A DNA stretch of 38,670 nucleotides from Candidatus Nomurabacteria bacterium. Lineage in GTDB: Bacteria > Patescibacteriota > Minisyncoccia > Phycocordibacterales > UBA9973. The stretch is taken from positions 1-38,670 of the forward strand of contig JAHFNN010000008.1 in the NCBI GenBank assembly GCA_023267315.1, written 5' to 3'. Each line of letters begins with the position of its first letter. The stretch's first letter is position 1. The notes below the pieces were generated by a model. The model was not told the origin of the DNA. It saw nothing but the letters and a program-made list of their open reading frames with translations, and searched no databases. Positions 1-36,616 of the stretch are shown here, in pieces. Position numbers and translations under genes: made by a program.

Positions 1-1
1 C

Positions 2-1672
2 CAGCTTACTACAACATTAAATCTTCATGGCAACCAGCTCATTAATGGGCAAGATCTAAATGAAAACCTTACCGCGATATTTGATGCATTAATGAACAAA
101 CTCTTCAGTATGGGTGTAAATGCACTGTCGACTGATACCAAGGACACAACAGATCAATCAACTGGTGGACCAGGAGAAAATTCCAGCCAACTACCAACGA
201 CACCAGACGTGCAAAATGATTGGAGTACTTTGGGTGGTCAATATAAAGATTTTGACATCTTCCATGACATCGATAATTGTATTCCAAGCGACACGAATCT
301 AGCCCACATCAAAGCAAAAACAATAAATAATAGTACTGATGACTGTATGTTAAACCCACAACTCACTAGTGACACAGATACAAACCCCGACCGTATTGGT
401 GGTATATATGTACTCAACACAAATAATCAAAACAACAATAACGGGGGGCTTGATGAAGATGCAAACAATCCCCTCAATAAGCCAGGGCCAATTGAACTAT
501 CAATCAAATTTATAAACGCTATTGGTGATCCAAACAAAGGATACCGATCAACAACATTCCCTGGTACAAAATTTGATATCGGTAAACCATATGGAACAGT
601 GGTGCGAACAGGCGCAGGGCACGAAGCAAGTGATTTTAACGCAGCAAAAGGATTTGATGCATCAACAAACGACAGCACCCTTACAAAAACAGCATATGAC
701 CTTATCTACGAGTTGAAGCAACTTGATTACTGTATTCCAGGACCATCACAGGGATATGGTCAACCACTTCAAGAAAAAGTTCAAAAGCAAGAACAAGAGT
801 GGGAGAAGTACGTAGCTGAAAATAGCGGGATGTTCGATAGTATAAAATATCACTTTACATTCCCATTTATGGCAATCTTAGGTGGTACTATGTGCGTCCC
901 TGGAGGAGTATGGGATGGAGATCAGGCGTTACAACGTCTCGATAATCTAGTGAATCAATTCAACAACACAATCGCAACAACATATGATGTGAGAAGTGGG
1001 AACCTTCCATACATTACCAGTACAGCACTGGATAAAGTTTCTCAAATAGACCAATTGAATCTCCAAATAACAGATAACAACAACCAGGTTCAAGATTCAA
1101 AGAACAATCTAAATACCCTAAAATATTTGTCGAAGAATCTGGTAACACTACAAACAAGCTATCCAGATAAATATAAAAATATAACGAATGTAAATGATCC
1201 AAATTATTCACAAAGCCAACAAAATCCTGATTATGCAAAGAAGTTGAATGCATTGAAGGGAATGTTTCTCCGTATAAATCCAAACCTACCAACCAGTGCA
1301 GCTATCGATGACATTGTGGGTAACATAGAAATTCTGGGAAGTGATTTAAGTGTTGTAGCTGATAAAGATATAGGTATGATTAAGCAGTGCATTGAACAAG
1401 TGCGTGCAATTCCAACAGCATTACACGGACGTCAACCTTATCCAGGAATCAGTCCGATATACACGGACAAAAACCAGACTGGTATCGATGAAACAGGGGC
1501 AGGCTACGACAACACAAGCTTCCTTGAAACAACACGCCCAACTGATGGATTTGATATGACATATTACCCAACAGCAACAGGAGCGGTAAGTGATGATGGA
1601 GACGGCTGCCCAAGTGGCCCTCAAATTCAAACGAATTTCAACGGATTTGAACACTACTTTGGAATTTACTAG
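2..1672 (+). CDS. C-terminal part of a large N/T/D/Q-rich extracellular protein (5' end lies left of the window)
   Basis: The frame of ORF 92..1672 stays open back to nt 2 (cag ctt act aca ... with no stop), so the ATG at 92 is probably internal. No TM helix or catalytic motif was recognised. It has N-rich low complexity (NTNNQNNNNGG). It is co-directional with, and directly upstream of, the T4SS-like genes. Confidence 0.6.
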   Translation, partial: QLTTTLNLHGNQLINGQDLNENLTAIFDALMNKLFSMGVNALSTDTKDTTDQSTGGPGENSSQLPTTPDVQNDWSTLGGQYKDFDIFHDIDNCIPSDTNLAHIKAKTINNSTDDCMLNPQLTSDTDTNPDRIGGIYVLNTNNQNNNNGGLDEDANNPLNKPGPIELSIKFINAIGDPNKGYRSTTFPGTKFDIGKPYGTVVRTGAGHEASDFNAAKGFDASTNDSTLTKTAYDLIYELKQLDYCIPGPSQGYGQPLQEKVQKQEQEWEKYVAENSGMFDSIKYHFTFPFMAILGGTMCVPGGVWDGDQALQRLDNLVNQFNNTIATTYDVRSGNLPYITSTALDKVSQIDQLNLQITDNNNQVQDSKNNLNTLKYLSKNLVTLQTSYPDKYKNITNVNDPNYSQSQQNPDYAKKLNALKGMFLRINPNLPTSAAIDDIVGNIEILGSDLSVVADKDIGMIKQCIEQVRAIPTALHGRQPYPGISPIYTDKNQTGIDETGAGYDNTSFLETTRPTDGFDMTYYPTATGAVSDDGDGCPSGPQIQTNFNGFEHYFGIY

Positions 1673-1705
1673 TAGTGTGTAGAAAAAAAATAAATAATAA
1701 ATTGA

Positions 1706-1747
1706 GATATCCCCTCGCATCACTATAGTAGTGTGCGAGGGGATATC
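1706..1747. other. Near-perfect 19-bp inverted repeat (hairpin) in the gap before the VirB6-like gene
   Basis: GATATCCCCTCGCA(T)CACTA-TAG-TAGTGTGCGAGGGGATATC, with one bulged T. An A-rich run (1683-1700) lies on its left and there is no T-run on its right. TATAAT at 1749-1754 follows immediately. Confidence 0.7.
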
Positions 1748-1781
1748 GTATAATGGAAGTGCAACAGATAGCCACGCGGGT

Positions 1782-4217
1782 ATGTTCAAAAAGTTTATAC
1801 TCATCATCATCATACTGACAATGTGCTTCTCTCCCGTTATCGGGCCTATTGGACATGCAAAGGCTGCTCAAACAACTACTAATGATGCGCTGCGACAAGA
1901 AGCGGGATGTACAGACTTCAATTCCTCCAGCGTTTCGAACTGTTTAGTTGTTGTGGCGTATTATGCAATGTATGTTTTTCCTTCATGGTTGATGGGGATC
2001 ACTGCAAATTTATTTAACGGATTGATCGGTATTGCACTCAGTAGTCAGATGTACTCCAATTCCAAATTCATTGAGAATGCCTGGTCTATTGTTCGTGATT
2101 TTGCCAATTTGTTCCTCATTTTTATCCTCTTATTTATCGGAATCTCTATTATTCTGGGCCTACATATCGGAGGAGAAAGCCCAAAAAAAATGCTGGTATC
2201 CCTCATTATAATGGGGCTTTTAATAAACTTCAGTCTATTTTTCACCGAAGTGGTTATTGATACTTCAAATGTGTTAGGTCTCCTGTTTTACAACCAAATA
2301 ACAGCCACTGCAAACTATGAGCCTATTATCCAAAACAGCATCACGGGTATAGATGAAAAGGATGTGTCAGGATCAATGATCCAAGCATTTAAGCCGCAAG
2401 CATTTAACGATCCTACTTTTTATGCGAGCTTGCGCACTCTCGATAGCAAGGGGAACAACACCGTTGACCCATCTATTACATTTACCTTTATCATCATCGT
2501 GGGTATCATACTTTTAGTGGCAGCATGGACTTTTTTTGTTGCAGGTTTAAGTTTCTTAGGAAGATTAGTTGGTCTATGGATTGCTATTATATTTGCACCG
2601 TTTGCATTTGTTACCTATATAGTTCCGAGTCTTCGACATATTGAAGGTATTGGTTTTGATAATTGGTTATCCACATTGATTGAAACAGCTTTTGCCGCAC
2701 CAATTTTTATGTTTTTCATATACCTCATTAGTTTGATAACCAAAAACTCTTTCATAAGCAACTTTGATCCAACAAAGGAGACTACAATTTCTTTAAAAAT
2801 ATTATTCATCGTGATACCAATGATGATAATCATGATACTCCTTCTACAAGCACGAAAGTACGTCGAAAAAGCTTCTGGTCAACTCGGACAACTTGCAATT
2901 GCTGGTGGAAAATTAGCACTCGGTGCTGCTGGGGCGGTTGCATTTGGAACAGTTGCAAAGGCTGGAGTTCAGGGTATTGGAAGAATTGGTTCAAACATTG
3001 CCAATCGTCCTGCAATGGATAAACGTGATGGCGAAAGTAGAGCTGGATACTTCCTACGACGACAAGCCTCGTTATTGGGATACTACAAACCAGGAGGAAA
3101 TAAAGAGAAAGGTAGTGGTGCAGGAGACAAGGCAAGTACCCCACCTGCTGCTGGTGAAAAAACAAATACCGCACCAGAAGGCGAACACCAGATACCAATC
3201 AACGATGCAGCAATCCGCAATCTATACGGTCCGGCATCCTCAACCGCCGCTCCAGGTACTGCACTTAATTACTCATTTACTCCAGCACAACGTGCTCTAT
3301 TAATGGCAGATGGCAGACAGGTAACAGAGCCAGGAAGTTCAAGAGCAGGAGGCGGGCTTGGATCTGAAGCTGAAGCTATACGCCAGAGAAAACTTGCTGG
3401 TACAACCACCACAAATAATGCTGGGGCTCCACTACCAGGAACAGCATCTAACACAGGAGCACCTGGAGCCGCGGCACCAACAACAGCTGGCACAGCAGGA
3501 GGTGGTCATGGAGAGACAGGAGGCCATGGTGCTGGTACTACGAGTACAGGTAATCTCTCACTTAAAGACCGTGCAGCAATGGACAAAGGTCTTGCCATAC
3601 CTAAAATTAAGGCAATGCAGTGGCTATCAAAAAGTAGTTTTGATGTTCGCAATACCAAACTAATGGGCCTTCTATCAAAAGCAATGGGTGTGAATTTTGG
3701 TAAGGGAACTGCCGGCGGCTATGAGGCATGGAGAAACCGACAGGTAGCAAAGAAACAAAAATTTGCTGACTCGCTCAAGATGTCTCATGCCGAAAAAGCA
3801 TTACTTGATCGCACTAGACAAGAACTCAAAGACGAAGAAGAGAAAATCAGGCACGATATACAACACGCAGGAGATGTGGCAGGTAGAGATCAAAAGGATA
3901 TCGACAAAGATATTCGACGAGAACTTGCTACTAATAGTAAGGTTGTTGGTTTAAGGGGACAAGTCCACTCACAAGAAAAAGTGGAAAAAAACAGAGCAAG
4001 AAATTACGCAAATATTGTAGATGGTGGCTGGGGGGCAGGAAAATGGGCTCGATCTGCTGGATTTTATCAAGAACATCACCTTGAAGCTGGTAATAAAATA
4101 CGCTCTGGCGCACCAATTGATGCTGAGGCCTTGAAAAAAGTATTAGTGGGTGGTAGTAGTGGTGGAGGGGGTGGTCACGGAGGAGGCGGACATGGTGGCG
4201 GAGGAGGACATCACTAA
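1782..4217 (+). CDS. Polytopic membrane protein, VirB6/TrbL-like by architecture and context, with a long low-complexity tail ending in a Gly/His tract
   Basis: ATG 1782 gives the signal-like N-terminus MFKKFILIIIILTMCFSPVIGPIGHAKA. The ORF-track start at 1731 lies inside the 1706-1747 hairpin. At least six long hydrophobic helices occur in aa ~70-390 (FANLFLIFILLFIGISIILGL, WIAIIFAPFAFVTYIV, LKILFIVIPMMIIMILLL). The following ~430 aa are G/A/T/P-rich plus a charged segment and end GGGGGHGGGGHGGGGGHH. The family call rests on topology and neighbourhood, not on a diagnostic motif. Confidence 0.5.
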   Translation: MFKKFILIIIILTMCFSPVIGPIGHAKAAQTTTNDALRQEAGCTDFNSSSVSNCLVVVAYYAMYVFPSWLMGITANLFNGLIGIALSSQMYSNSKFIENAWSIVRDFANLFLIFILLFIGISIILGLHIGGESPKKMLVSLIIMGLLINFSLFFTEVVIDTSNVLGLLFYNQITATANYEPIIQNSITGIDEKDVSGSMIQAFKPQAFNDPTFYASLRTLDSKGNNTVDPSITFTFIIIVGIILLVAAWTFFVAGLSFLGRLVGLWIAIIFAPFAFVTYIVPSLRHIEGIGFDNWLSTLIETAFAAPIFMFFIYLISLITKNSFISNFDPTKETTISLKILFIVIPMMIIMILLLQARKYVEKASGQLGQLAIAGGKLALGAAGAVAFGTVAKAGVQGIGRIGSNIANRPAMDKRDGESRAGYFLRRQASLLGYYKPGGNKEKGSGAGDKASTPPAAGEKTNTAPEGEHQIPINDAAIRNLYGPASSTAAPGTALNYSFTPAQRALLMADGRQVTEPGSSRAGGGLGSEAEAIRQRKLAGTTTTNNAGAPLPGTASNTGAPGAAAPTTAGTAGGGHGETGGHGAGTTSTGNLSLKDRAAMDKGLAIPKIKAMQWLSKSSFDVRNTKLMGLLSKAMGVNFGKGTAGGYEAWRNRQVAKKQKFADSLKMSHAEKALLDRTRQELKDEEEKIRHDIQHAGDVAGRDQKDIDKDIRRELATNSKVVGLRGQVHSQEKVEKNRARNYANIVDGGWGAGKWARSAGFYQEHHLEAGNKIRSGAPIDAEALKKVLVGGSSGGGGGHGGGGHGGGGGHH

Positions 4218-4248
4218 TAGATAAGTAAGTGGTACACTTATATAACAC

Positions 4249-5316
4249 ATGGATGAAGAAACAAAAAAAATAATAGAAGAGCAATTCGAAAATATGCCTG
4301 AGGATGTTCGACAAGCACTTATCTCCACAAATTGGACAATTGAACTTTCGAATATCATCAAAAAGTATGGCTTACATGCCGATCAAGCGGATATTCTTTT
4401 TAAAGAAACCGTATTGATACTTTTCGGATTAGCTCATCCCGGTGACTATCAAACAGAACTCGAAGAGCGGCTAAAAATCCCATCAGAGCGCGCAATCGCT
4501 ATTGTAAATGATGTTAATGAACACATTATTTCCAAAATGCGACAATATTTAAAAGACGAGGAAGATGATGAAGAAGGAGAGAAAGTAGACCTCACCAACC
4601 AGAATCTCACTGACGAAGAAAAAGATGTGCTTGGACAATACAACGTGCTTCCCAAAAAAGTGCAGGATGCAATTAAATCAGAAAGCTTACCAAAAAAAAT
4701 TCAAGATGCAGGGATAAAAAATCAGATTCCATCATCACAATTTGGTGATATTGAAACAGAAGTATCCATGGTACTTTTAGGACTCGAAGTTCCCGATAAT
4801 CTTTATGTGAAGCTTATGGAGCGTATGAAAATACCTGAGGATAAAGCTCGCGCCCTCGCAAATGATTTGAGTGCAAGCATATTCGATCCAATCAAAGATT
4901 CTTTGAGTATTGCCACCTCACGAGAAAATGTTGTTTTTGAAAAAGAAGAAAATAAAGTGTTTGAAGACTCAGGTATTAGCATCATTAATGAGCAAGCGCC
5001 TGCACCACTTCCTCCAGAAAAACCAACTACACCACTACGATCGGGGATGGAGAAAACAATTCGAGATGATTTATTGGAAAAAATCGAACATCCACCAGCG
5101 ACACCTACATCAGGTATATCAATTATTCAAGCAAAATTACAAGGAAATTTTTCTCTCCCCTCCGAAAAACGCGAGTATGTTCTCAAAAACTTATCGCGCG
5201 GTGGAGCAAAGCCAGCAAGCACCCCTATACCACCGAGTCCTCAAGCGGCACCAGCACCTGCGCCGAATGCAGCACGATCATCAGATCCATACCACGAACA
5301 AATCATACCTGAATAA
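4249..5316 (+). CDS. Acidic cytoplasmic protein with an internally duplicated ~80-aa module and a Pro-rich C-terminus; function unknown
   Basis: No signal peptide or TM helix. Two modules share the pattern V(R/Q)xAI.S...E..(L/V)(L/I)L.GL..P.....L.ER(L/M)KIP...A.A..ND. A DEEDDEEGE linker lies between them. The C-terminus is PAPLPPEKP...PPSPQAAPAPAPN. Confidence 0.6.
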   Translation: MDEETKKIIEEQFENMPEDVRQALISTNWTIELSNIIKKYGLHADQADILFKETVLILFGLAHPGDYQTELEERLKIPSERAIAIVNDVNEHIISKMRQYLKDEEDDEEGEKVDLTNQNLTDEEKDVLGQYNVLPKKVQDAIKSESLPKKIQDAGIKNQIPSSQFGDIETEVSMVLLGLEVPDNLYVKLMERMKIPEDKARALANDLSASIFDPIKDSLSIATSRENVVFEKEENKVFEDSGISIINEQAPAPLPPEKPTTPLRSGMEKTIRDDLLEKIEHPPATPTSGISIIQAKLQGNFSLPSEKREYVLKNLSRGGAKPASTPIPPSPQAAPAPAPNAARSSDPYHEQIIPE

Positions 5317-5326
5317 TCTACATAAA

Positions 5327-5356
5327 ATACCATCAATACACATTGGTGGTATTTTG
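5327..5356 (+). terminator. Intrinsic terminator after the acidic-protein gene
   Basis: ATACCATCAAT-ACAC-ATTGGTGGTAT forms an 11-bp stem. Its single U-G pair is valid only on the plus strand. TTTT follows. Confidence 0.55.
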
Positions 5357-5392
5357 CTACAAGGTATTTTATTTATCGTGTATAATTAAAAC

Positions 5393-5800
5393 ATGCAGGC
5401 TCGTGTGCCACAATTTATCGACATACCCGATAAAATATTCGGTCCCTTCACATTCAAGCAATTCATCTATCTTGCTGGTGGTGGTGGTATTGCCTTTGTA
5501 TTATATAAAGCATTCCCATTTGTTGTCGCGGTAATTCCAATACTTATTGTTCTTACACTTTCAATAATGCTCACGTTCTATAAGATAAACAATCAATCAT
5601 TCATTGAAATACTTCAGGCTGCAATAAAATTTCAAACTCAAGGGAAACTCTATATTTGGAAAAAAAGTGGCAAGAAAAAAGCTCCAGTCACCGTCACTGC
5701 AAAAAAAGATGAGTCTATTGTTATACCACGACTTACCTCCAATAAACTTGATGATCTTTCATGGAGTTTGAACATTTTGGATTCGAATAGGGAACTATAA
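5393..5800 (+). CDS. PrgI-family (VirB3-like) small membrane protein of Gram-positive-type T4SS
   Basis: The N-terminus MQARVPQFIDIPDKIFGPFTFKQFIYLAGGGG is followed by two adjacent TM helices, which matches the PrgI family signature as I recall it. It sits immediately upstream of the VirB4-type genes. TATAAT 5381-5386 lies 6 nt before the ATG. Confidence 0.7.
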   Translation: MQARVPQFIDIPDKIFGPFTFKQFIYLAGGGGIAFVLYKAFPFVVAVIPILIVLTLSIMLTFYKINNQSFIEILQAAIKFQTQGKLYIWKKSGKKKAPVTVTAKKDESIVIPRLTSNKLDDLSWSLNILDSNREL

Positions 5801-5803
5801 TAT

Positions 5804-6484
5804 ATGTCAGTAAATGCAAAATCAACTCAAGAATTCGTGCCAATCAAGGAAGTACGCGACGGTGTCATACTTTTGAAAGATGGTGGCCTCCGTGCGGTAC
5901 TTCTTGCTACATCAATCAACTTGTCACTCAAGGCGTATGATGAACAGAAGGCGATCATTATGAATTTTGAATCGTTTTTAAATACACTCGATTTTTCAAC
6001 ACAAATTGTAATTCAGTCTCGTCGTCTTGATATTCGTCCGTACATTCAAGTTCTTGAAAACAGAAAGCGCGAACAGTTTGAGCCACTTTTAAAAATACAA
6101 ACACAGGAATATATTAATTTCATTAAGAAATTTACTGAGGATGTACACATTATGACGAAGAATTTCTATATTGTTGTTCCATATACTCAGGCGACACTTT
6201 CAACAAAAAAAGGGTTCATGAGTAGTATTTTCCCATTTCTCGGAAAGAAAAATGAAGCAGAAGCAAAACAAGAAGCAAAAGCTGATTTTGAAGAGAAGCG
6301 AATGGAATTGGAACAACGTATCTCTGTCATCTCACAAGGATTAAATCCAATTGGTGTTAAAATGAGAAAGCTTAAGTCTGATGAAGTGATCGAGCTCTTC
6401 TATAAGACATTCAATCCTGGAGAAATTAATACGCACATCAAACTTGAAGGGGAGCTCAATCAAGACAAAAAGACTGAGGGATAA
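5804..6484 (+). CDS. VirB4 N-terminal-domain-like protein (probable detached N-terminal segment of a PrgJ/TcpF/Orf16-type ATPase)
   Basis: STQEFVPIKEVRDGVILLKDGGLRAVLLATSINLSLKAYDEQKAIIMNFESFLNTLDF resembles the extreme N-terminus of Gram-positive VirB4 ATPases. There is no Walker motif. Its stop codon is 5 nt from the next ATG. Confidence 0.5.
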   Translation: MSVNAKSTQEFVPIKEVRDGVILLKDGGLRAVLLATSINLSLKAYDEQKAIIMNFESFLNTLDFSTQIVIQSRRLDIRPYIQVLENRKREQFEPLLKIQTQEYINFIKKFTEDVHIMTKNFYIVVPYTQATLSTKKGFMSSIFPFLGKKNEAEAKQEAKADFEEKRMELEQRISVISQGLNPIGVKMRKLKSDEVIELFYKTFNPGEINTHIKLEGELNQDKKTEG

Positions 6485-6489
6485 TATAT

Positions 6490-8442
6490 ATGAGTATTGT
6501 TGATACACTATTAGGAAAAAATAAAAAGGGTACGGCAAAAAATCCAATGATGCCAGTATTGCCGCAGGAAATTTACGATGCGGCAAATATGGAGCTCGTG
6601 GATGTTATCGCGCCATCTGCGCTAAAAGTAGAGCCGAAATCACTCAATCTGGGAGATAAAATTGCCCGCACGTTTTTTGTTATTTCATATCCATCGACCC
6701 TTACTGACAACTGGTTTTCACCGATTGTTAATCTCGATAAAGTCTTTGATGTATCAATATTTATTCATCCAATTGAAACAGCAAAGATACTCCGACAATT
6801 CCAGAAGAAAGTGGCTGAGGTACAAAGCCAGATCAGCACTCGTGAATCACGTGGACTCGTACGCGATCCGATGTTGGATAGTGCGTATCGAGACCTTGAA
6901 TCTCTTCGTGACAGCTTGATGCAGGTTCAACAGCGAATGTTTGATGTTGGACTCTATATCACCATCTATGCAGACCAGTCAAAAGATCTCTTTGAGACCG
7001 AAAATGAAATAAAGTCGATTCTTGAAGCAAAACAAGTATTCTTAAAACCAGCACTCTTCCAACAAGAAGAGGGTTTGAAAAGTGTCATTCCGACGGGAAC
7101 AGATATGTTGAATATCCATACAAAGATGAATTCAGAGCCACTATCACTCATTTTCCCATTCATCTCGTTTGACCTTACTTCGAATGACGGAATCCTCTAC
7201 GGAATCAATCGTCACAACTCAAGTCTAATTATCTTCGATCGTTTCTCACTTGAAAACTACAACTCAATTATCTTTGCAAAATCTGGATCGGGAAAATCAT
7301 ACACAACCAAATTAGAAATTATTCGTACACTCATGTTCGATACGGAAGTTATTGTGATCGACCCAGAACGCGAATATGAATACTTGGCAGAGGCTATTGG
7401 AGGGCGTTACTTCAATATTTCTCTTTCATCAGATAACCATATCAATCCATTTGACCTACCTCCACCAGCCGAAGATGAAACAGCCCAGGATGTATTGCGA
7501 TCAAAAATTATTACCTTGGTGGGACTCTTCCGTGTGCTTTTAGGTGGTCTCACTCCAGAAGAAGATGCAATTATCGACCGCGCCCTCTCAGAAACATATG
7601 CGATCAAAGACATCACTCCTGAATCTGATTTCACTAACATTGAGCCACCACTACTTTCAGATTTCGAAATGGTACTCTCTGGAATGGAGAACTCAGAATC
7701 ATTAATACAACGCCTATCGAAATTCACCCATGGATCATGGGCATCATTCATCAACCAGCCTTCGAATGTAGATATCAATCGAAAATTCGTCGTGTTTTCT
7801 ATTCGAGACATGGAAGAAGAGTTGAAGCCTGCTGCAATGTATATCATCACAAACTTCATCTGGACTGTCGTACGCAAGGACAGACGAAAGCGCCTGCTTG
7901 TTGTGGATGAGGCATGGTGGATGATGAAATCAGATGACACTGCGCAATTCCTTTACTCTATCGCAAAACGTGGCCGAAAATATTTCTTGGGACTCTGTAC
8001 GGTGACTCAAGACGTGGCAGACTTCATGAAAAACCAGTACGGTGCGGCAATCGTCACCAACTCATCACTCCAACTTCTATTAAAACAATCACCGGCCTCT
8101 ATCGACCTCCTGCAAAAGACGTTCAATCTCACTGATGAAGAAAAATATCTCCTATTGGAATGTGATCGAGGGGAGGGGATATTCTTTGCAGGACTAAAGC
8201 ACGTAGCGATACGCGTCGTCGCATCATACACCGAGGACCAAATCGTCACTTCAGACCCAGGTCAAATCCTCGCAAACAAAAAAGAAAAGGAAGCTTTTGC
8301 AAACGCGGAACAAATGCAGCGTAGTAAAGAAGGCTCACTTATTGAGGCTGGAAACACTCAACCCGTAGCACCTCAAAACACACCCAATCAAAATATCCCA
8401 GCACCAACAACACAAGAAAATCCTCCAGTGCAAGCTATATAG
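6490..8442 (+). CDS. virB4: VirB4/TrsE-family type IV secretion ATPase
   Basis: Walker A is FAKSGSGKSYTTK and Walker B is RLLVVDEAWWMM. The upstream VirB4-type segment is VIAPSALKVEPKSLNLGDKIARTFFVISYPSTLTDNWFSPI. Length is 650 aa. Confidence 0.9.
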   Translation: MSIVDTLLGKNKKGTAKNPMMPVLPQEIYDAANMELVDVIAPSALKVEPKSLNLGDKIARTFFVISYPSTLTDNWFSPIVNLDKVFDVSIFIHPIETAKILRQFQKKVAEVQSQISTRESRGLVRDPMLDSAYRDLESLRDSLMQVQQRMFDVGLYITIYADQSKDLFETENEIKSILEAKQVFLKPALFQQEEGLKSVIPTGTDMLNIHTKMNSEPLSLIFPFISFDLTSNDGILYGINRHNSSLIIFDRFSLENYNSIIFAKSGSGKSYTTKLEIIRTLMFDTEVIVIDPEREYEYLAEAIGGRYFNISLSSDNHINPFDLPPPAEDETAQDVLRSKIITLVGLFRVLLGGLTPEEDAIIDRALSETYAIKDITPESDFTNIEPPLLSDFEMVLSGMENSESLIQRLSKFTHGSWASFINQPSNVDINRKFVVFSIRDMEEELKPAAMYIITNFIWTVVRKDRRKRLLVVDEAWWMMKSDDTAQFLYSIAKRGRKYFLGLCTVTQDVADFMKNQYGAAIVTNSSLQLLLKQSPASIDLLQKTFNLTDEEKYLLLECDRGEGIFFAGLKHVAIRVVASYTEDQIVTSDPGQILANKKEKEAFANAEQMQRSKEGSLIEAGNTQPVAPQNTPNQNIPAPTTQENPPVQAI

Positions 8443-8492
8443 AATACCGCCTTTGGTATTCCCCACGATACTCAATTAAATTTTTTGTTGCG

Positions 8493-8501
8493 TGATATAA
8501 T
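8493..8501 (+). promoter_or_regulatory. Extended -10 promoter element (TGaTATAAT), 7 nt upstream of ATG 8509
   Basis: The sequence tgatataat spans 8493-8501, followed by atactca and then the ATG. No SD is present. Confidence 0.45.
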
Positions 8502-8508
8502 ATACTCA

Positions 8509-9519
8509 ATGAATCGACGGATTCGAGTCTATGGTTTTAGAGTGTTTTTTTTACTTCTACTTATTGGTGGATCCTTTTTTGTTTCAAATGTCCGTGCTGC
8601 AGATATAATTAATGACAGTAATATAACGATACAACTAGACCCAAGTGCACCGGGACCATTTCAAGAAACAACCATTACATTGGTGAGCTACCTCGCTGAT
8701 TTGAATCAAGCTAAAATCACCTGGCAACAGGACGGGAAAAAAGTACTATCTAATATCGGGGCAAAAAGCTTCTCTTTTACTACTAAAGATGTGGGAAGCA
8801 CCACATCAATAACCGTTTTTATTGATATCTTAGGAAGCCCACTCATCACCAAACAACTTTCTGTAACACCAAATAACATCGACTTGTTGTGGGAGGCGAC
8901 GGATTCATACGTGCCGCCGTTTTACGAAGGGAAGGCGCTTCCGACATCTCAAAGTAAAGTACGAGTTGTTGCTATCCCAAATACTAATATAGGTAGTGGG
9001 GGTATTTCACCAGGAAATTTTGTGTACCAGTGGAAACTAAACTTCGACCCTGATCAAGATCAGTCAGGTTATTCAAAAAATGCATTCATATATGCTAACA
9101 GCTTCCTGAATAAATCAGATACGATATCGGTAACAGCATCATCTACAAGCGGAGGGGGAAGCGCTGATGCTTCAATTGATATTCCAATAAACAATCCATT
9201 GATACTTTTTTATGAAAATAACCCTCTTTTGGGCCTCGATTTTTCAAAAGCGCTCAACAATGGCTTTGATGTTACCGGTCGTGATGCACGAATTGTCGCG
9301 GAACCATTCTTCTTCTCACCGAAAGACCCAACATCAAATGAATTAACATACACATGGACAATGAACAACAATCCTATTAATACACCATCGACACCGAACC
9401 AGATTGCATTCTCTCGTACAGCTGACCAAACCGGCCAAAGTCGGATCTCATTATCAATTGATAGTGTTACCAAGCTTTATTTGAGTGCACAATCATTCTT
9501 CTTGATTAATCTAAAATAA
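8509..9519 (+). CDS. Secreted protein made of three ~100-aa beta/Ig-like modules; function unknown
   Basis: ATG 8509 gives MNRRIRVYGFRVFFLLLLIGGSFFVSNVRA, a signal peptide. The track start at 8485 is TTG and lies upstream of the -10 element. The three modules each carry an x(T/Y)xW strand (KITWQQD, FVYQWKLN, LTYTWTMN). The stop overlaps the next start (TAATG at 9517-9521). Confidence 0.65.
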   Translation: MNRRIRVYGFRVFFLLLLIGGSFFVSNVRAADIINDSNITIQLDPSAPGPFQETTITLVSYLADLNQAKITWQQDGKKVLSNIGAKSFSFTTKDVGSTTSITVFIDILGSPLITKQLSVTPNNIDLLWEATDSYVPPFYEGKALPTSQSKVRVVAIPNTNIGSGGISPGNFVYQWKLNFDPDQDQSGYSKNAFIYANSFLNKSDTISVTASSTSGGGSADASIDIPINNPLILFYENNPLLGLDFSKALNNGFDVTGRDARIVAEPFFFSPKDPTSNELTYTWTMNNNPINTPSTPNQIAFSRTADQTGQSRISLSIDSVTKLYLSAQSFFLINLK

Positions 9520-11138
9520 TGAATAAATTATTTAAAACAATATTCATAGTAATACTTTTATCTTTTTCTTTTGGAATTTCAGCGACTACTCATGCCGCGT
9601 CAGAAGAACATGCGGGATCGCTTAATCCAAAGGGGGATGTCAACTCAGAACAAGAAGCAAGAACTAATTACAGAACGGATTTTCTTTATTGTGATATTAC
9701 CAATTACAGCATATCTCCAAATGGCGATTCAAAAACAGATCCTCTGAACCCTCATATCGATGGTTCAATAGACTTTGACGGCGATACCTGGTATAGAGAT
9801 CGTGACACACTATACAAAAACGGTGATCAGCCAAAAGTCCATATCCAGCTCACAGCCGATAAATGTAAAGGTCTCAACATATATATTGCCGTACACTCTC
9901 TTGTAGTTAGCGCGGGTCCATTAGGAAATCCTTTGGCACTCATATGGGGACCGATAAAGGTTGACTCCGATCATAGAGTTTTTGACTTATATGCGCAGGC
10001 GGGGGCAATGCAGGGTATTTTTGCAAATAGAAACTGCTTAAAAGAAGTATGGGGTGTATGGGATTGTAAATTTGACGTGCAGGTGCTTGCTGCAAATTAT
10101 CAGTTTAGTAGCACTCATACTTCTTTAGTAATCTACGAGCCAGGAGTATTAGGGGAACCAAACTATCCGTCTCTTAATTATGATTGTAACGGGAGTTTCG
10201 CGGATATAGAATGTAAAGACGTCCCATGGAAAAAAATCACTCAAGATAGCCAGCTCTCGAGTGATACAATTATTCCTCTCGACCCCTCAAATCCCAACGG
10301 AAGTACAATCACTTATACCTACCTTCAACCATTACCAAATCCTGAAGGGGGTGGGAGTCTGAAAACATTCGATACATCAGACACATCATCTTTTGGTCAT
10401 TATGTGACAATCATAGTTGAATTTATTATTGGGATCAGTGCTGTCCTCGCAGTACTTATGATTATTATTGGAGGTATTCAATACATGACCAGTGAACTCA
10501 TTAGTAATAAAGAAGAGGCCAAAAGCCATATGACGGGTGCCATATTGGGACTTTTGATTGTTCTAGCTACTGTTGTGATCCTACAGACCATCAATCCAGA
10601 TATATTGAATTTAAATTTACAAAAAAGCTTTCCACCAGACTCAGTACTAGACACTGGGGGTGACACACCTCCACCGCCAGCAAATGATAATAATAAAACG
10701 ATGGTGTGTAAAAATCCTTCATATGAATCAGGGTCTACCTGGTTTGATGATAGCTCAACGAGACAACAGATTATTGCCCTCTTAAAAGATCCAAATATCA
10801 TCAATAAAAGTAATTGTGCAACAGTAGGTCAAAGTAACTGCACAAGTGTCTATAACCTTGATTATTCTGGATTTGCAGCCTTAATAACCAAGGGTAATTT
10901 TAAGGCTGGTGATTTAATCATAACCGGAGGAACAGAGTGCTGGCTTCATCAAACCCATAAACCAGGAACTGGAATTATGGATTTAAGTGTAACTCCTGCG
11001 TTAAAGGCATATGTTGAGAAGGGTTTATTGACTCAAAAAGACTGGGATGGTGGCAAGGCTCCGATGTACACAGTCGGCACTACTCAATTTATATACGAAA
11101 CAAAAGGTGGGCCTCACTATCACGTACGAAGATGGTAA
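9519..11138 (+). CDS. Secreted fusion protein: Cys-rich N-domain, embedded double-TM T4SS-pilin (VirB2/TrbC-like) motif, Cys-containing C-domain with a possible LAS-type peptidase signature
   Basis: The signal peptide is MNKLFKTIFIVILLSFSFGISATTHA. The pilin-like hairpin (nt ~10391-10600) reads VTIIVEFIIGISAVLAVLMIIIGGIQYMTSELISNKEEAKSHMTGAILGLLIVLATVVILQTINP. The C-domain contains LIITGGTECWLHQTHKPGTGIMDLS and a terminal GGPHYHVRRW. Confidence 0.6.
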   Translation: MNKLFKTIFIVILLSFSFGISATTHAASEEHAGSLNPKGDVNSEQEARTNYRTDFLYCDITNYSISPNGDSKTDPLNPHIDGSIDFDGDTWYRDRDTLYKNGDQPKVHIQLTADKCKGLNIYIAVHSLVVSAGPLGNPLALIWGPIKVDSDHRVFDLYAQAGAMQGIFANRNCLKEVWGVWDCKFDVQVLAANYQFSSTHTSLVIYEPGVLGEPNYPSLNYDCNGSFADIECKDVPWKKITQDSQLSSDTIIPLDPSNPNGSTITYTYLQPLPNPEGGGSLKTFDTSDTSSFGHYVTIIVEFIIGISAVLAVLMIIIGGIQYMTSELISNKEEAKSHMTGAILGLLIVLATVVILQTINPDILNLNLQKSFPPDSVLDTGGDTPPPPANDNNKTMVCKNPSYESGSTWFDDSSTRQQIIALLKDPNIINKSNCATVGQSNCTSVYNLDYSGFAALITKGNFKAGDLIITGGTECWLHQTHKPGTGIMDLSVTPALKAYVEKGLLTQKDWDGGKAPMYTVGTTQFIYETKGGPHYHVRRW

Positions 11139-11149
11139 TATAGCACTAT

Positions 11150-12517
11150 ATGTCACGCGCAAAAATAATTACAATCATTATTCTCATAATTTTCGTCCTC
11201 TTCGGAGTTTATTTCTTCTTCAGTAATAAAGGAGGGAATGGAGGCTCTTCCACCGATTCTGGATTTAAGAGTTTCTTCCCATTTGGAAAACAAACTACAA
11301 ATACAAACAACCAAACTACTCCATCAGATAGCACAACACCATCAGACACTACTCCGGTTGAAAATCCTCCTGTCGTACTTTCTTCTACAAGTAAACTACA
11401 ACAACTCACCAATCGCTCGGTTGCGGGAATGCTCCCTGTTGAAGAAACACGTCTCTCAAAAGACCAACCAGTCGTTGATCCAAATGCACCAAAAGTATTC
11501 GGAGTAAAACCACCCGCACCAAAAACGGAAGTCGCAACAGCGGTACGATATATGGAGCGGGGGACTGCACATATTTTTGATATATTCCCCGACACCAAAC
11601 AGGAGCTCCGCGTTTCCAATACCACCATTCCACGCATTCACGATGCCACGTTTGGCAAAGATGGCGCATCTGTCATCTTCCGATTCTTAGACACTGATAA
11701 TACGACGATAAAGACCTACAGCGCACAAATAACTACCGCAAAAGATCTCACTCAAGGTACCGGGACACTAGATCTGCCACCACTTAAAGGAGCTTTTCTG
11801 GCAGATGACATACCGAATATAACAATATCAACCGACGGCACAAAAATGTTTTATCTATCCAAGTTCAATACTGGTGTTGTGGGAAACCTATCACTGCTCG
11901 ATGGCACAAAAAAAACTACTGTGTTCGACTCAGCCTTTACTGATTGGTTGCCGCGCTTTGCCAATAGTCGCCAAGTACTCCTTGTATCAAAAGCATCAGG
12001 ACTTGCTCTCGGCTCAGCGTATATTCTTGATACTCAGACAAAAACCTACGGAAATATTCTCTCGGGTGTCACTGGACTTACGGGGCTTCTCTCTCCTGAC
12101 AACAAACTGTTCCTATATGCGGTAGGAGGAACAGGGAAAATGGATTTGAATTTAATTACTGTAAGTTCAAAAACAAATACAGGTTTAAATATATCTACTC
12201 TTCCAGAAAAGTGTGTGTGGACAAAAGACAGTAAAACAATCTACTGCGCGGTACCAAAACAATTACTTCAAAATTCTATTTACCCAGATGCGTGGTATCA
12301 AGGTCTTGAATCATGGAGTGACTCACTATATAAAATCGATGTAAAAAGTGGCCAAGTGCAGATGATCGAGCCACTCTCGGTAGGGGACGGAATTGATGCG
12401 ACAAACCTCGAATTGAATGTGAAAGAAAACTATCTTGTATTTATCAATAAAAAGGATTCAACACTGTGGAGTTTCGATCTTACTCCAGCAGCAACCGGTA
12501 CAGGAAAAACACAATAA
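11150..12517 (+). CDS. N-terminally membrane-anchored protein with a probable beta-propeller (TolB/PD40-like) ectodomain; function unknown
   Basis: The TM anchor is IITIIILIIFVLFGVYFFF, followed by a T/S/P-rich linker. Repetitive beta-strand-like segments follow (KMFYLSKF..., KLFLYAVGG..., KTIYCAVP..., NYLVFINKKDSTLWSFD). This is the last gene before the terminator. Confidence 0.5.
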   Translation: MSRAKIITIIILIIFVLFGVYFFFSNKGGNGGSSTDSGFKSFFPFGKQTTNTNNQTTPSDSTTPSDTTPVENPPVVLSSTSKLQQLTNRSVAGMLPVEETRLSKDQPVVDPNAPKVFGVKPPAPKTEVATAVRYMERGTAHIFDIFPDTKQELRVSNTTIPRIHDATFGKDGASVIFRFLDTDNTTIKTYSAQITTAKDLTQGTGTLDLPPLKGAFLADDIPNITISTDGTKMFYLSKFNTGVVGNLSLLDGTKKTTVFDSAFTDWLPRFANSRQVLLVSKASGLALGSAYILDTQTKTYGNILSGVTGLTGLLSPDNKLFLYAVGGTGKMDLNLITVSSKTNTGLNISTLPEKCVWTKDSKTIYCAVPKQLLQNSIYPDAWYQGLESWSDSLYKIDVKSGQVQMIEPLSVGDGIDATNLELNVKENYLVFINKKDSTLWSFDLTPAATGTGKTQ

Positions 12518-12531
12518 ATGAAAAGCTAAAT

Positions 12532-12565
12532 AAAAAATACCCTGCTTATGGCAGGGTATTTTTTA
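12532..12565. terminator. Bidirectional intrinsic terminator between the T4SS-like cluster and jag
   Basis: AAAAAATACCCTGC-TTATG-GCAGGGTATTTTTT. It has an A-run on one side and a T-run on the other. The T-run overlaps the jag stop codon. Confidence 0.8.
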
Positions 12566-13030
12566 TTGTTCAATGTATTTCACCACAACTCGTCGATCTC
12601 TTCCTTCTCCGACTGATTCTGTTTTGATATTAGGGACATTTTGTAAAAATGTATGCACAACCTTTCGTTCATAGGCACTCATTGGATCAATTTCAACACT
12701 TGATTTGAAAAATTTTGCTCGTTCAGCCATCATATGGGCGATCGTCTTTAAATTATCATTCTTCTTTTTTTGATACTCATTTACATCAATCGTAACATCA
12801 GGCATCACTTCACCTTCTACTGCAGCGCCATCAATGAGCTTTTTAGCGAGGTGATTGAGTGCCATGAGCGATTCACCCTCTCGTCCCAAAAAGAGGTGTG
12901 GTTCATTGGTTTTAACACTAAACCACATACTGCCGTCATCAGCATTAAAAACACTCGAAACCTCTTCCACATGGAAGCTCGTCTTTTCAAGAAGTTCTTT
13001 GACTATGGTATTTATTTTATCTGTTTGCAT
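12563..13030 (-). CDS. jag: Jag/KhpB-type R3H-domain RNA-binding protein
   Basis: The C-terminal R3H region is MSAYERKVVHTFLQNVPNIKTESVGEGRDRRVVV. It occupies the canonical position downstream of yidC. Confidence 0.85.
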   Translation of the reverse strand: MQTDKINTIVKELLEKTSFHVEEVSSVFNADDGSMWFSVKTNEPHLFLGREGESLMALNHLAKKLIDGAAVEGEVMPDVTIDVNEYQKKKNDNLKTIAHMMAERAKFFKSSVEIDPMSAYERKVVHTFLQNVPNIKTESVGEGRDRRVVVKYIEQ

Positions 13031-13036
13031 ATTAGT

Positions 13037-13777
13037 TTATATCTTAGTTACATTCGCAAGCATCTTTCTACGAACTACGCGCTCTTGAATGATGCTAAAC
13101 ATATTACTCGTGATCAAATAAAGTGCAACTGCAGCTTTATATTGGTAGGCGATGTATGTGATGAGGAGGGGAATTGTATATTGCATTTGCTTCGTCATAT
13201 TCTTACCAAGCTCTTCACCAAATGAAGTTTTCTTTTCTGTAACTACAATTTCTTTTGGTTTTGGTACGATATTTTTATTCATCATCCACAACTGAAAGGC
13301 CTGTACACCACCAGCAATAACCGCAAGGAAAATATTTTTTGCATCAAGATTTATAAAACCAAACAAGTGCATACTGAAATTTGAAGGGAAGTGCACAAAT
13401 GAGTAGAGCGGATCGGTATGCGCGGCAAGCGAACGAAATACAAAATACAATGCAACAATGATCGGAAATTGAAGCAGGGTAGGGAGGCATCCAGAAAATG
13501 GGCTAACTCCATGCTCTTTGTAGAGTGCCATGGTTTGGTTTGCCTGTTCTTTTTTGTCAGGATACTTGGCTTTTATTTTTTCAATCTCTGGTTCAAGCTT
13601 CTTGAGCTCAGTCTGACTTTTGATTGATTTCTGAGAAAGAGGGAAGATAATAAACTTCACGAGAACAGTGAGAATGATGACCGCGAGGCCAACATCACCT
13701 CCCGGCATTATCCCCGTAATAAAAATAAGCGCATTGTATAATGGCTTATAAAAAATAGTGATCCAAAGTGCGTGCAT
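13037..13777 (-). CDS. yidC: Membrane protein insertase YidC (short, Gram-positive/Oxa1-like form)
   Basis: A multi-TM protein containing KLEPEIEKIKAKYPDKKEQANQTMALYKEHGVSPFSGCLPTLLQFPI. It sits in the rnpA-yidD-yidC-jag context. Confidence 0.9.
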   Translation of the reverse strand: MHALWITIFYKPLYNALIFITGIMPGGDVGLAVIILTVLVKFIIFPLSQKSIKSQTELKKLEPEIEKIKAKYPDKKEQANQTMALYKEHGVSPFSGCLPTLLQFPIIVALYFVFRSLAAHTDPLYSFVHFPSNFSMHLFGFINLDAKNIFLAVIAGGVQAFQLWMMNKNIVPKPKEIVVTEKKTSFGEELGKNMTKQMQYTIPLLITYIAYQYKAAVALYLITSNMFSIIQERVVRRKMLANVTKI

Positions 13778-13840: not shown

Positions 13841-14080
13841 TTATAAAAGAGGGTCGTAATGATTTTTCTGCCATGGATGACATCGAGAAATTCGGCGTAA
13901 TCCAAGCCCCACCCCTTTGATTGAGCCGTATTTTTGAATAGCTAAAATCATATATTCTGAGCACCTTGGGGTGAAAACACAGCTCGTTCCACGGGTCAGA
14001 CCTAGTTTCCGGGGAAGACCCTGATCTGGAGAGAGGATTTTTTGATATACCTTTATAAGGAAAATGAGTATTTGCTTCAT
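13841..14080 (-). CDS. yidD: Membrane protein insertion efficiency factor YidD
   Basis: KVYQKILSP...CVFTPRCSEYMILAIQKYGSIKGVGLGLRRISRCHPW is the typical YidD sequence. Confidence 0.9.
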   Translation of the reverse strand: MKQILIFLIKVYQKILSPDQGLPRKLGLTRGTSCVFTPRCSEYMILAIQKYGSIKGVGLGLRRISRCHPWQKNHYDPLL

Positions 14081-14100: not shown

Positions 14101-14436
14101 TTACTTCAAAAGTCGGGCAGAGGTAAGGAGTTGTTTTATTTCTCCTTGAATTTCAAGGAATGTAAGTTTTTCAGCCCCTTTTTTAAAGAAAAAGAGCGCT
14201 TTGACTGGGGGGAGAGCCCCCACATAGGACTCTATAGCAGAATAGCCTTTCCTTCTAAGGGTATTTCTAGAAATAGCGCTCTTGGATACCGCCTTTGGTA
14301 CCACAAAGGAGAAGGTGGGGATATCCTTGGGGATAAAGGTATATCTTAGAGATATGTGTTGATTTGTAAGGCTTTTTCCAGCTTGAAGTGCCTCGGTGAA
14401 TGAGGTTTTAGTGTTTCTATTTTTTTTGGGCAACAT
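14101..14436 (-). CDS. rnpA: Ribonuclease P protein component
   Basis: A basic 111-aa protein immediately downstream of rpmH, with a FVVPKAVSKSAISRNTLRRK-type RNR-like motif. Confidence 0.85.
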   Translation of the reverse strand: MLPKKNRNTKTSFTEALQAGKSLTNQHISLRYTFIPKDIPTFSFVVPKAVSKSAISRNTLRRKGYSAIESYVGALPPVKALFFFKKGAEKLTFLEIQGEIKQLLTSARLLK

Positions 14437-14439: not shown

Positions 14440-14574
14440 CTAGACAGTGAGCTTTTTTCGGCCCTTTTGGCGACGGCGCTTGAGAGTATTTCGGCCGTTC
14501 TTAGATCGGCTGCGGACGAGAAATCCGTGTGTAGTCTTTCTTTTTCGCTTTTTTGGTTTATATGTTTGAGACAT
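14440..14574 (-). CDS. rpmH: 50S ribosomal protein L34 (below the ORF-track size cut-off)
   Basis: Manual translation of the minus strand gives [44 protein letters not shown] followed by a stop, which fits the L34 consensus. Confidence 0.92.
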
Positions 14575-14721: not shown

Positions 14722-14781
14722 TGGGGATAAGAAATCCCTTTATAATATAGACATATTTTCGTTTTGCACAGATTATTCACA
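14722..14781. promoter_or_regulatory. DnaA-box-like sites in the rpmH-dnaA intergenic region
   Basis: TGGGGATAA at 14722-14730 has one mismatch to TGTGGATAA. TTATTCACA at 14773-14781 fits TTATNCACA. TATAAT lies at 14825-14830. Confidence 0.5.
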
Positions 14782-16200: not shown

Positions 16201-16393
16201 TGTGAATAACGATGTGGATATTAATAGATAATGTGTGGGGAGATTGTGAGTTAGTGTAGTAAAAGAGGTAGTGGTAAAAATTTTTTAAAATAGTTATCCT
16301 TTGTTAAATTTTTTATTCACAGGTAGTTGATTTAAAAAACTGATTAAAACACTTACATATAAAGGATTTATAAATCTTATCCACATATCCACA
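16201..16393. promoter_or_regulatory. oriC-type DnaA-box cluster with an AT-rich tract between dnaA and dnaN
   Basis: The boxes are TGTGAATAA 16201-16209, TGTGGATAT 16213-16221, TTATTCACA 16313-16321, a perfect TTATCCACA 16377-16385 and ATATCCACA 16385-16393. An AT-rich stretch lies at 16276-16345. Confidence 0.7.
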
Positions 16394-22236: not shown

Positions 22237-22716
22237 TTATAACGAACGTTCATGCGCGAATGCTGTCAGCCCCACTGCGATTGCATCTATTTCATCATCT
22301 ATTTGTTTTTTTTCTGGAAGTACAATCAACCGCTTTACCATTTTACGGACATCTTCTTTATCAGCACGACCATAGCTTGCCACCGCAATTTTAATCTGGA
22401 GCGGTGTAAATTCCCGAATGCCAAGATTATTGCGCGAGGCTTCATAGATAATAACCCCACGAGCCTCTGAGACACCCATGACGGTTTTCTGGTTGGTGGT
22501 CATGAAGAGTGTTTCTATTGCGAGTAGGTCAGGTTTATATTTTTTTATGAGCCGAGCAACTTCTGTTCCGATTAAAAAAATGCGCTCGGATAGCGTCAGT
22601 TTACTACTTGTTTGAAAGCAGTCTGAATACATAAGCACTTCTTTTTTGCCTTGTTCCTTTTCAAGTACAGCAACTCCAAGTCTGTCATACCCTGGGTCTA
22701 TGGCAAGTATTTTCAT
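22237..22716 (-). CDS. ruvC: Crossover junction endodeoxyribonuclease RuvC
   Basis: MKILAIDPGYDRLGVAVLE... carries the catalytic D at the start. The C-terminus has DEIDAIAVGL. ATG 22716 is preferred, since the track start at 22722 is TTG. Confidence 0.9.
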   Translation of the reverse strand: MKILAIDPGYDRLGVAVLEKEQGKKEVLMYSDCFQTSSKLTLSERIFLIGTEVARLIKKYKPDLLAIETLFMTTNQKTVMGVSEARGVIIYEASRNNLGIREFTPLQIKIAVASYGRADKEDVRKMVKRLIVLPEKKQIDDEIDAIAVGLTAFAHERSL

Positions 22717-22722
22717 ATACAA

Positions 22723-27110: not shown

Positions 27111-27203
27111 ATATGCACTATAGTAACTTTTTTTGCTTCTAAAAACAATATTTTTACCTTTATTTTTATGGATTTTAGGCTCATTTGAGGTTTATTGAAG
27201 TAC

Positions 27204-27232
27204 TTGACATTTGTCTCTAAAGATGATATACT
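27204..27232 (+). promoter_or_regulatory. Consensus sigma-70 promoter (TTGACA-17-TATACT)
   Basis: TTGACA lies at 27204-27209, followed by a 17-nt spacer and TATACT at 27227-27232. This places the ORF-track start at 27195 upstream of the transcription start. Confidence 0.7.
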
Positions 27233-36612: not shown

Positions 36613-36616
36613 CTAG

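Follow-up and report, generated by a model that had tools for sequence, protein, structure and literature searches.

A chromosomal type IV secretion cluster beside the replication origin of a Candidatus Nomurabacteria bacterium contains a modular pilin-core protein

What does a cluster of type IV secretion system (T4SS) genes, with no recognisable genes for mobility, do next to the chromosomal replication origin of a Candidatus Nomurabacteria bacterium? We addressed this for contig JAHFNN010000008.1 of assembly GCA_023267315.1. The whole contig of 38,670 bp is referred to below as the window; no sequence exists to the left of base 1, and the rest of the genome lies outside the data. A preliminary description of this DNA had proposed a non-conjugative apparatus, derived from a T4SS and fixed in the chromosome near the origin, of an organism that is streamlined and possibly epibiotic, and this proposal is supported by synteny, by the identity of the relatives and by the literature. 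We interpret the cluster as a chromosomal Patescibacteria T4SS in the Paceibacteria layout that would serve host contact and macromolecule exchange and not conjugation, with a probability of roughly 0.8. The cluster is the T4SS already published for Patescibacteria (Wang et al., 2023; Quinonero-Coronel et al., 2025; PMC12102498). The finding is therefore real but not new, and the window represents a clean and seemingly complete instance of the Paceibacteria layout, not a new kind of system. Few machines are known to be indispensable to the epibiotic way of life of the Patescibacteria, a very large and mostly uncultured radiation, and the T4SS is one of them.

Nine consecutive ORFs, here termed p1 to p9, lie on the plus strand across positions 1-12517 in the ORF listing of the window. 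As described previously they are co-directional with tiny gaps or overlaps, and the three junctions reported at that time were exact (TAA-N3-ATG at 5798-5806, TAA-N5-ATG at 6482-6492 and an overlapping TAATG at 9517-9521). The frame of the first ORF, listed at 92-1672, remains open to base 2, and the gene is therefore truncated at the left contig edge, as had been suspected. While the nine genes are as described, the cluster is not whole in the window; relatives hold a full-length p1-family gene and one more conserved gene upstream.

The product of p6 (6490-8442), which comprises the middle and C-terminal ATPase domains, is a monoderm-type (MPF-FATA-like) VirB4 ATPase. It scored 378 bits against the NCBIfam model conju_CD1110 (cut-off 325), covering model positions 183-732 of 752, and matched the Pfam families TraG P-loop and AAA_10. 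Among PDB sequences, p6 matched 4ag5, the C-terminal domain of a Gram-positive VirB4, with an E-value of 1e-46, and TrwK with an E-value of 2.6e-7. The translation contains the Walker A motif GSGKS and the Walker B motif LLVVDEAW. p5 (5804-6484, 226 aa) is a TrsD-like protein, homologous to the N-terminal domain of VirB4 but encoded on its own. Its match to the NCBIfam family TrsD/TraD (E 7e-9) was below the family cut-off, and it aligns to positions 100-234 of VirB4_plasma and to positions 2-126 of CD1110. The earlier suggestion of a VirB4 in two pieces is thereby accounted for by a TrsD/VirB4 N-domain protein and a VirB4 ATPase. As a trsD gene was adjacent to virB4 in all 80 related loci compared (see below), sequence comparison indicates that the split is the normal TrsD plus VirB4 arrangement and no frameshift. 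The PrgI/VirB3-like call for the small membrane protein p4 (5393-5800) also held, with 39.3 bits against PF12666 (PrgI; cut-off 27, E 9.4e-10), and members of this family were present in 76 of the 80 loci.

The fourth core component, p2 (1731-4217), is a polytopic membrane protein resembling an extended VirB6. About eight hydrophobic helices of transmembrane (TM) type in aa 20-430 are followed by a long, low-complexity, charged C-terminal tail, and p2 thereby fits the "extended VirB6" as the term is used in a 2025 FEMS review (PMC12857230). The VirB6-like assignment proposed earlier failed in direct hidden Markov model (HMM) tests. There was no direct Pfam, NCBIfam or PDB sequence match to p2, whose searches returned only low-complexity and coiled-coil noise from the tail, and 28 orthologues likewise lacked a match to a TrbL/VirB6 profile. 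The assignment did gain support from transitive matches and from structure. Among 38 more distant homologues fetched with the membrane domain of p2, six matched PF04610 (TrbL/VirB6) and one matched TrbL_4. An AlphaFold2 (AF2) model of aa 1-440 had a pLDDT of 78.6, and a Foldseek search with this model gave R388 TrwI/VirB6 chains as the top PDB matches (probability 0.98-0.99, E 0.013-0.04, TM-score 0.35-0.41); these chains were recognised as VirB6 by their lengths as given in the structure paper (PMC9259494). The p2 family was found two genes upstream of prgI in 65 of the 80 loci. At its C-terminus (3990-4217) p2 ends in a Gly/His run, GGSSGGGGGHGGGGHGGGGGHH, and the family consensus ends in HGGGxHH; this conserved tail may bind metal. 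The mechanically assigned starts of p2 (GTG 1731) and of p7 (TTG 8485) are probably too far upstream, as the family consensus N-termini point to ATG 1782 and ATG 8509, respectively. Altogether, the assignment of p6, p5, p4 and p2 as the membrane energy-and-assembly centre of the system is strongly supported.

Relatives were identified by a scan of species-representative genomes with p6, which gave more than 568 matches, and the best 80 were used for locus comparison. All of these 80 (VirB4 70-79% identical) were Patescibacteria metagenome-assembled genomes labelled Paceibacteria, Nomurabacteria or Parcubacteria, a similarity ranking that is in keeping with a Patescibacteria VirB4 clade. The order VirB6-like, p3-like, PrgI, TrsD, VirB4, p7, p8, p9, jag-yidC-yidD-rnpA, dnaA-dnaN was near invariant in about 80 genomes, and the nine-gene order and origin-proximal position are thus kept between species. 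Median identity to the window was 75% for VirB4, 68% for DnaA, 59% for TrsD, 55% for DnaN and 48% for PrgI, and 36% for p7, 34% for p9, 33% for VirB6 and 29% for p3. Similarity in VirB4 correlated with similarity in DnaA (Spearman 0.54) no less strongly than DnaA did with DnaN (0.48). Because VirB4 tracks DnaA and exceeds its conservation, we conclude that the locus is vertically inherited under constraint at the level of housekeeping genes.

Upstream of the VirB6 gene the relatives carry the p1-family gene, sometimes a gene for an extra surface protein, a gene for a conserved anchored ~300-aa protein and, beyond it, ksgA and uvrD. In at least 33 relatives (e.g., L002:2035-2946) this protein (cluster c14), which is acidic and has no Pfam match, is encoded between the p1-family gene and ksgA. 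At its 5' end the T4SS cluster probably begins with the gene for this protein, to the left of base 1 of the window. The extra surface protein, found in many relatives between the p1-family gene and VirB6 (L026:2932-5019, L005:2662-4287), is an anchored, acidic and Cys-rich protein of 500-700 aa, in some cases with a repeated DINDPQCH motif, and its gene is not present in the window. Our clustering placed it together with the VirB6 family, for which low-complexity regions are probably responsible.

The ORFs of the window were scanned for mobility functions, and no relaxase, VirD4, VirB11, VirB8/9/10 or integrase domain was found, in agreement with the preliminary description. Neither was a coupling protein found within 10 kb in the relatives, nor a relaxase or integrase in their upstream flanks; where mobility genes would have spoken for an ordinary conjugative element, the relatives carry ksgA and uvrD instead. 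No flanking repeats turned up in the window, although no dedicated repeat search was made. These results bear on whether the cluster could be an integrated conjugative element, or the decaying remnant of one, that landed near the origin. VirB4, TrsD, PrgI, VirB6 and the pilin do all descend from monoderm conjugation systems (PMC12102498). However, the position and gene order are the same in about 80 species, all ORFs are intact, VirB4 is conserved above DnaA and co-varies with it, and the GC content of the cluster is like that of the rest of the contig, which is uniform along its length with no compositional anomaly at the cluster. Given the synteny, the degree of conservation and the fact that mobility genes were found neither in the window nor upstream in the relatives, we rejected this explanation, and it is the only one of those considered here that we regard as essentially excluded.

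The published accounts describe the same system. The survey of 3,035 Patescibacteria genomes reports a monophyletic Patescibacteria VirB4 clade nested in the monoderm MPF-FATA class, with TrsD, PrgI/VirB3, VirB6 and PF18895 VirB2-like pilins encoded near virB4, whose surroundings contain few relaxases and coupling proteins. Clusters of Paceibacteria and Microgenomatia are located close to dnaA, dnaN, rnpA, rpmH and ksgA. The authors suggest a benefit from gene dosage and a system repurposed for a function other than conjugation (Quinonero-Coronel et al., 2025). The window has the same components and the same neighbours (ksgA in the relatives) and no nearby relaxase or coupling protein, and nothing essential differs. 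Not spelled out in the survey are the pilin fusion, the partners p7, p9, p3 and the p1 family, and the unannotated C-terminal domain of p8 described below.

In Southlakia epibionticum, transposon sequencing (Tn-seq) showed that the cluster SEML1_0006-0019 and the pilins are essential for epibiotic growth, and no recognisable coupling protein or relaxase belongs to this T4SS (Wang et al., 2023; PMC10633639). The gene comEC, on the other hand, is dispensable (PMC10633639; PMC12857230). The region SEML1_0005-0019 of strain ML1 is, like the cluster in the window, origin-proximal and has PF18895 pilins, and the order of its core is the same: VirB6 ... PrgI - TrsD-like - VirB4 - lysozyme-like - exported Ig-like protein. 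Saccharibacteria differ in having six small pilin genes in a separate divergent array, the lysozyme-like protein as a separate gene, and an NTF2-like (VirB8-like) protein, whereas none of the latter was recognised in the window, where a single pilin core is fused to ectodomains.

A T4SS without relaxase or coupling protein, in the window as in the upstream flanks of the relatives, could also work in reverse as a DNA-import machine, like ComB of H. pylori or the archaeal Ced system, with host or environmental DNA serving as a nucleotide source or for transformation. Uptake of DNA or of other macromolecules is raised as a possibility in the survey, and the organism lacks nucleotide biosynthesis according to the literature (PMC12102498; PMC12857230). 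p6 did match CedB (E 1e-8) and CedD (E 9e-6) weakly, but the scores were far below the cut-offs (34 bits against 700 and 25 bits against 600) and amount to generic VirB4-ATPase similarity. No CedA or ComB-specific partners were found. Competence of S. epibionticum proceeds via type IV pili and ComEC, and there it is comEC that is dispensable and the T4SS that is essential; a PilB-type ATPase is encoded in the window as well. We consider DNA import unlikely. If it did occur it would be a sub-case of host contact and macromolecule exchange, and not a contradiction of it.

p8 (9519-11138) encodes a modular pilin-core protein of 539 aa. A signal peptide is followed by a Cys-rich ectodomain (aa ~27-260), then by a core (aa ~262-366, nt 10302-10616) with a Y-x-LLAPLP motif, a VirB2-like two-helix pilin core and a motif of the NTINPxLL type, and finally by a C-terminal domain (aa 382-539, nt 10662-11135) of no annotated family. 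The double-TM motif of pilin type noticed previously matched T4SS_pilin (PF18895) at aa 299-357 with 27.0 bits at a cut-off of 26.6, and the assignment is solid at the family level: T4SS_pilin was matched by 38 of 43 orthologues and TrbC/VirB2 by five of the 43. The window has exactly one pilin-core ORF, as do 70 of 74 related loci, and these ORFs are large, ranging from 144 to 736 aa (median 437). It is likewise strongly supported that p8 provides the single VirB2-like pilin core and that p1, p7 and p9 are anchored or exported partners within the same conserved cluster.

Aligned orthologues of p8 show a constant order of signal peptide, variable N-ectodomain, invariant Y-x-LLAPLP, two-helix core, conserved NTINPxLL and variable C-domain. 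The two motifs might be processing sites that release pilin, adhesin and enzyme. Among the N-ectodomains we found TIG, Big_1, Filamin, CBM_10 and purple-acid-phosphatase-N (fn3-like) domains. A recognised peptidoglycan-active C-terminal module was present in 29 of the 43 orthologues, namely NlpC/P60 (8), VanY (7), YkuD (5), Amidase_5 (3), Peptidase_M15_4 (2), SLT_2 (2), SLT (1) and Extensin-like_C (1). When the C-module was classified by motifs, which gives crude classes, its class differed in 451 of 532 pairs of loci with VirB4 at least 80% identical. Examples are NlpC/P60 versus YkuD at 94% VirB4 identity and M15_4 versus an SLT-like module at 93%.

The C-domain of p8 in the window belongs to a family with invariant positions CTS, GGTE-W-H (as in GGTECWLH), H, D, E and HxH. 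We found 324 representatives in a library of 1.84 billion proteins; the domain was nearly always C-terminal, and in 32 of 46 sampled proteins it stood behind a T4SS_pilin domain. There was no Pfam, PDB or profile-profile match to it. An AF2 model of p8 contained a helical hairpin and a confident alpha/beta C-domain (pLDDT >90). A Foldseek search of the hairpin plus C-domain against PDB and BFVD, in which the query included the pilin hairpin, gave helical-hairpin look-alikes only. The H-x7-D and HxH pattern suggested a LAS/M15 zinc peptidase as a candidate. This was unsupported, as hhalign with paralogue VanY and M15_4 domains gave a probability of less than 1% and there was no Pfam or PDB match. 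Judged by its position, the domain would fill the slot of a wall-active enzyme, i.e., the role of VirB1.

The accounts of this system at hand appear not to cover these observations. No pilin-enzyme fusions are described in the available text of PMC12102498, in which "fusion" refers to VirB3-VirB4 fusions, and a full-text literature search turned up no other paper on pilin-enzyme fusions. The modular pilin fusion with its swapped C-module, together with the unannotated C-domain family, therefore appears to go beyond what has been published.

The modules of p8 also bear on the direction in which the machine acts. A self-directed envelope machine would remodel the cell's own wall or display surface proteins or a filament as a housekeeping function independent of a host. 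The location of the locus among housekeeping genes beside yidC, jag and the origin and the conservation of VirB4 above that of DnaA agree with such a function, as does the peptidoglycan-binding domain of some p9 homologues. So does the presence of YkuD among the C-modules; YkuD is an L,D-transpeptidase, which cross-links peptidoglycan and does not cleave it. However, relatives with VirB4 92-94% identical, which presumably share the same wall chemistry, carry enzymes of different bond specificity, and the N-modules TIG, Big_1, Filamin, fn3-like and CBM_10 look adhesin-like. Saccharibacteria furthermore need the T4SS specifically in co-culture with the host, although the organism cannot grow without the host in any case. 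We find a self-directed machine improbable, even more so than DNA import. Exchange of the wall-enzyme class between near-identical machines would fit a variable external target, such as the envelope of a host, better than the cell's own wall.

One possible, and so far tentative, way to picture p8 is as a swappable tool-holder, in which a conserved core presents an adhesin-like N-module and a wall-active C-module and both are exchanged between close relatives, comparable to the receptor-binding and lysin modules of phages. We lean against rather than towards this picture. If it is true, the pilin-derived stalk would act as a wall-breaching head specific to the host, with which the epibiont could open the envelope of its partner. 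The interchangeable modules of p8 diverge fast while the ATPase outdoes DnaA in conservation, which is the pattern expected of a host-range determinant and which offers a testable handle on function.

The remaining products of the cluster are exported, anchored or acidic proteins. Of p1 (1-1672), a large and acidic protein that is either exported or anchored, the window encodes at least 556 aa at the C-terminal end, the remainder being lost at the contig edge. This part was matched by an HMM of the family encoded upstream of VirB6 in relatives (E 3.5e-35). This family HMM was needed to tie p1 to the upstream family because BLAST and phmmer against the relatives gave no match; Pfam and NCBIfam gave none either. 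Members of the p1 family are fast-evolving proteins of 700-970 aa with an N-terminal hydrophobic anchor and a pI of about 4.5, and they precede VirB6 in the relatives.

p7 (8485-9519) is N-terminally anchored or secreted and is built from three beta-rich modules, each about 100 aa long and homologous to one another. The modules had been noticed before, and their relatedness was confirmed by profile self-comparison (hhalign 95%, 86% and 67%). The gene is located directly downstream of virB4 and was present in 77 of the 80 loci. Pfam gave only sub-threshold Ig_3 and CBM_6 hits to p7, and a profile search of PDB sequences with the family gave no match. In p9 (11150-12517), which was present in 69 of the 80 loci, an N-terminal anchor is joined by a linker rich in Thr and Pro to a conserved, beta-rich domain of some 350 aa. 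At least 598 homologues were found, none of them annotated, and the p9 protein of the window had no Pfam or PDB sequence match. A few homologues carry PG_binding_1 between the anchor and the core, and p9 is probably associated with the cell wall. p3 (4249-5316) is an acidic protein (pI 4.7) with a Pro-rich tail and no TM segment, and is presumably cytoplasmic. Its halves are homologous (hhalign 99.9%, E 3.7e-31), so that the internal duplication reported earlier is borne out by profile self-comparison. A member of the p3 family lies between VirB6 and PrgI in the relatives, and the family had no Pfam match and, by profile search, no PDB sequence match.

Compared to the MPF-FATA systems (pGO1 Trs, pCF10 Prg/Pcf and the CD1110-type CTn2), the cluster shares a VirB4 that passes the CD1110 cut-off and the presence of PrgI, and pGO1 has the same split into TrsD and VirB4. 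The membrane-tethered peptidoglycan hydrolase of these systems (PrgK, TraG, CwlT) is paralleled by the wall-enzyme module of the pilin-core orthologues. Unlike them, the window lacks a relaxase, a VirD4/PcfC coupling protein and a PrgB-type adhesin, whereas it has a VirB2-like pilin, which is missing from the Gram-positive systems; Patescibacteria T4SSs are considered the only monoderm T4SSs with VirB2-like pilins (PMC12857230). The MPF-FATA systems are borne on mobile elements, while the locus studied here is chromosomal and vertically inherited. The likeness to the Trw system of R388 consists of VirB3-VirB4 at the base, the VirB6 platform and a two-helix pilin of VirB2 type. The VirB7/9/10 outer-membrane core, VirB5, VirB8, VirB11 and VirD4 of R388 were not recognised in the window, in which VirB6 is extended by a long hydrophilic tail and the pilin carries large fused domains.

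These comparisons suggest how a machine for host contact and exchange might work. In the R388 structure a pentamer of VirB6 is the platform for pilus assembly (PMC9259494). By analogy with R388 and the Gram-positive systems, VirB4 with TrsD and PrgI would act at the base of the VirB6 platform and extract the pilin core from the membrane, and the extracted core would be assembled into a short stalk, or a conduit resembling a pilus, that crosses the monoderm wall. That a pilus-like conduit might serve exchange with the host is a speculation made before (PMC12857230). p7, p9 and the p1 family could form a scaffold that spans the wall or covers the surface. The adhesin-like N-modules of p8-type proteins would contact the partner cell, while the C-modules would open peptidoglycan in the manner of VirB1. 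The machine as a whole would serve attachment to the host and exchange of macromolecules, either by export of effectors or by import from the host.

Several points weigh against this interpretation. The VirB6 identity of p2 depends on weak Foldseek E-values and transitive HMM matches, the pilin match of p8 in the window is barely above the Pfam threshold, and no VirB8-like component was recognised in the window. The C-domain of p8 is without detectable enzyme similarity, its role at the wall being deduced from its slot only, and the cross-linking YkuD domains among the C-modules are a caution against the host envelope as the target. A VirD4-like protein or a relaxase could be encoded outside this 38.7-kb contig, and many VirD4 homologues are far from virB4 in the survey (PMC12102498). 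Finally, essentiality of the T4SS is known only from one Saccharibacterium and not from Paceibacteria.

The preliminary description had placed the cluster next to jag-yidC-yidD-rnpA-rpmH at the origin. This was confirmed and can be extended to dnaA, dnaN and clusters of DnaA boxes. On the minus strand, jag (R3H, 12563-13030), yidC (13037-13777), yidD (13841-14080) and rnpA (14101-14436) were identified by Pfam matches, and the ORF at 14440-14574 was identified as rpmH (L34). On the plus strand, Pfam matches identified dnaA (14851-16200) and dnaN (16436-17530). The window contains 29 DnaA-box-like 9-mers (TTATCCACA, allowing at most one mismatch) compared to 12.7 expected. They cluster upstream of dnaA (14722-14781) and mostly in the spacer between dnaA and dnaN (16201-16393), and this spacer is the likely oriC.

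At the distal end, a bidirectional intrinsic terminator (12529-12567) lies between the convergent genes p9 and jag. Its stem of 17-18 bp is flanked by A and T runs, and folding gave dG values of -23.4 and -22.0 kcal/mol on the two strands with z-scores of -6.6 and -7.1, in line with the strong terminator that was said to close the cluster. An internal terminator dividing the cluster into two units had also been proposed. The hairpin between p3 and prgI (5323-5356, plus strand) is real, with a 15-bp stem, a dG of -15.5 kcal/mol and a z-score of -5.0. However, its U-tract is short and a consensus terminator scan did not call it, and two transcription units are no more than plausible. The hairpin may be a weak terminator or an attenuator. 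A TATAAT-like hexamer is located 3' of it at 5381-5386, and the p3-prgI spacer is variable among relatives.

Elsewhere on the contig, a PilB/T2SSE-type ATPase with an MshEN domain, of the kind involved in type IV pilus assembly, is encoded at 25410-27110 on the minus strand. A second envelope machine, a type IV pilus, is thus encoded about 13 kb from the T4SS. The ATPase gene is adjacent to a 595-aa ORF without a Pfam match (27195-28982) and to an 830-aa surface protein with DUF11 repeats (29210-31702), both on the plus strand. At 36616-36689 on the minus strand, ARAGORN reported a "tRNA-Stop" with the anticodon tta, i.e., an ochre suppressor. We rejected this candidate, as alignment to the Rfam tRNA model (70.4 bits) gave the loop CUUUUAA of a tRNA-Lys(UUU); the ARAGORN call is a register artefact because the first pair of the anticodon stem is mismatched. 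The YebC/TACO1 gene (22237-23262, minus strand) takes the form of a 179-aa ORF with a 161-aa ORF (22237-22722) directly after it on the same strand; either YebC has been split or frameshifted, or the second ORF is a small gene of its own.

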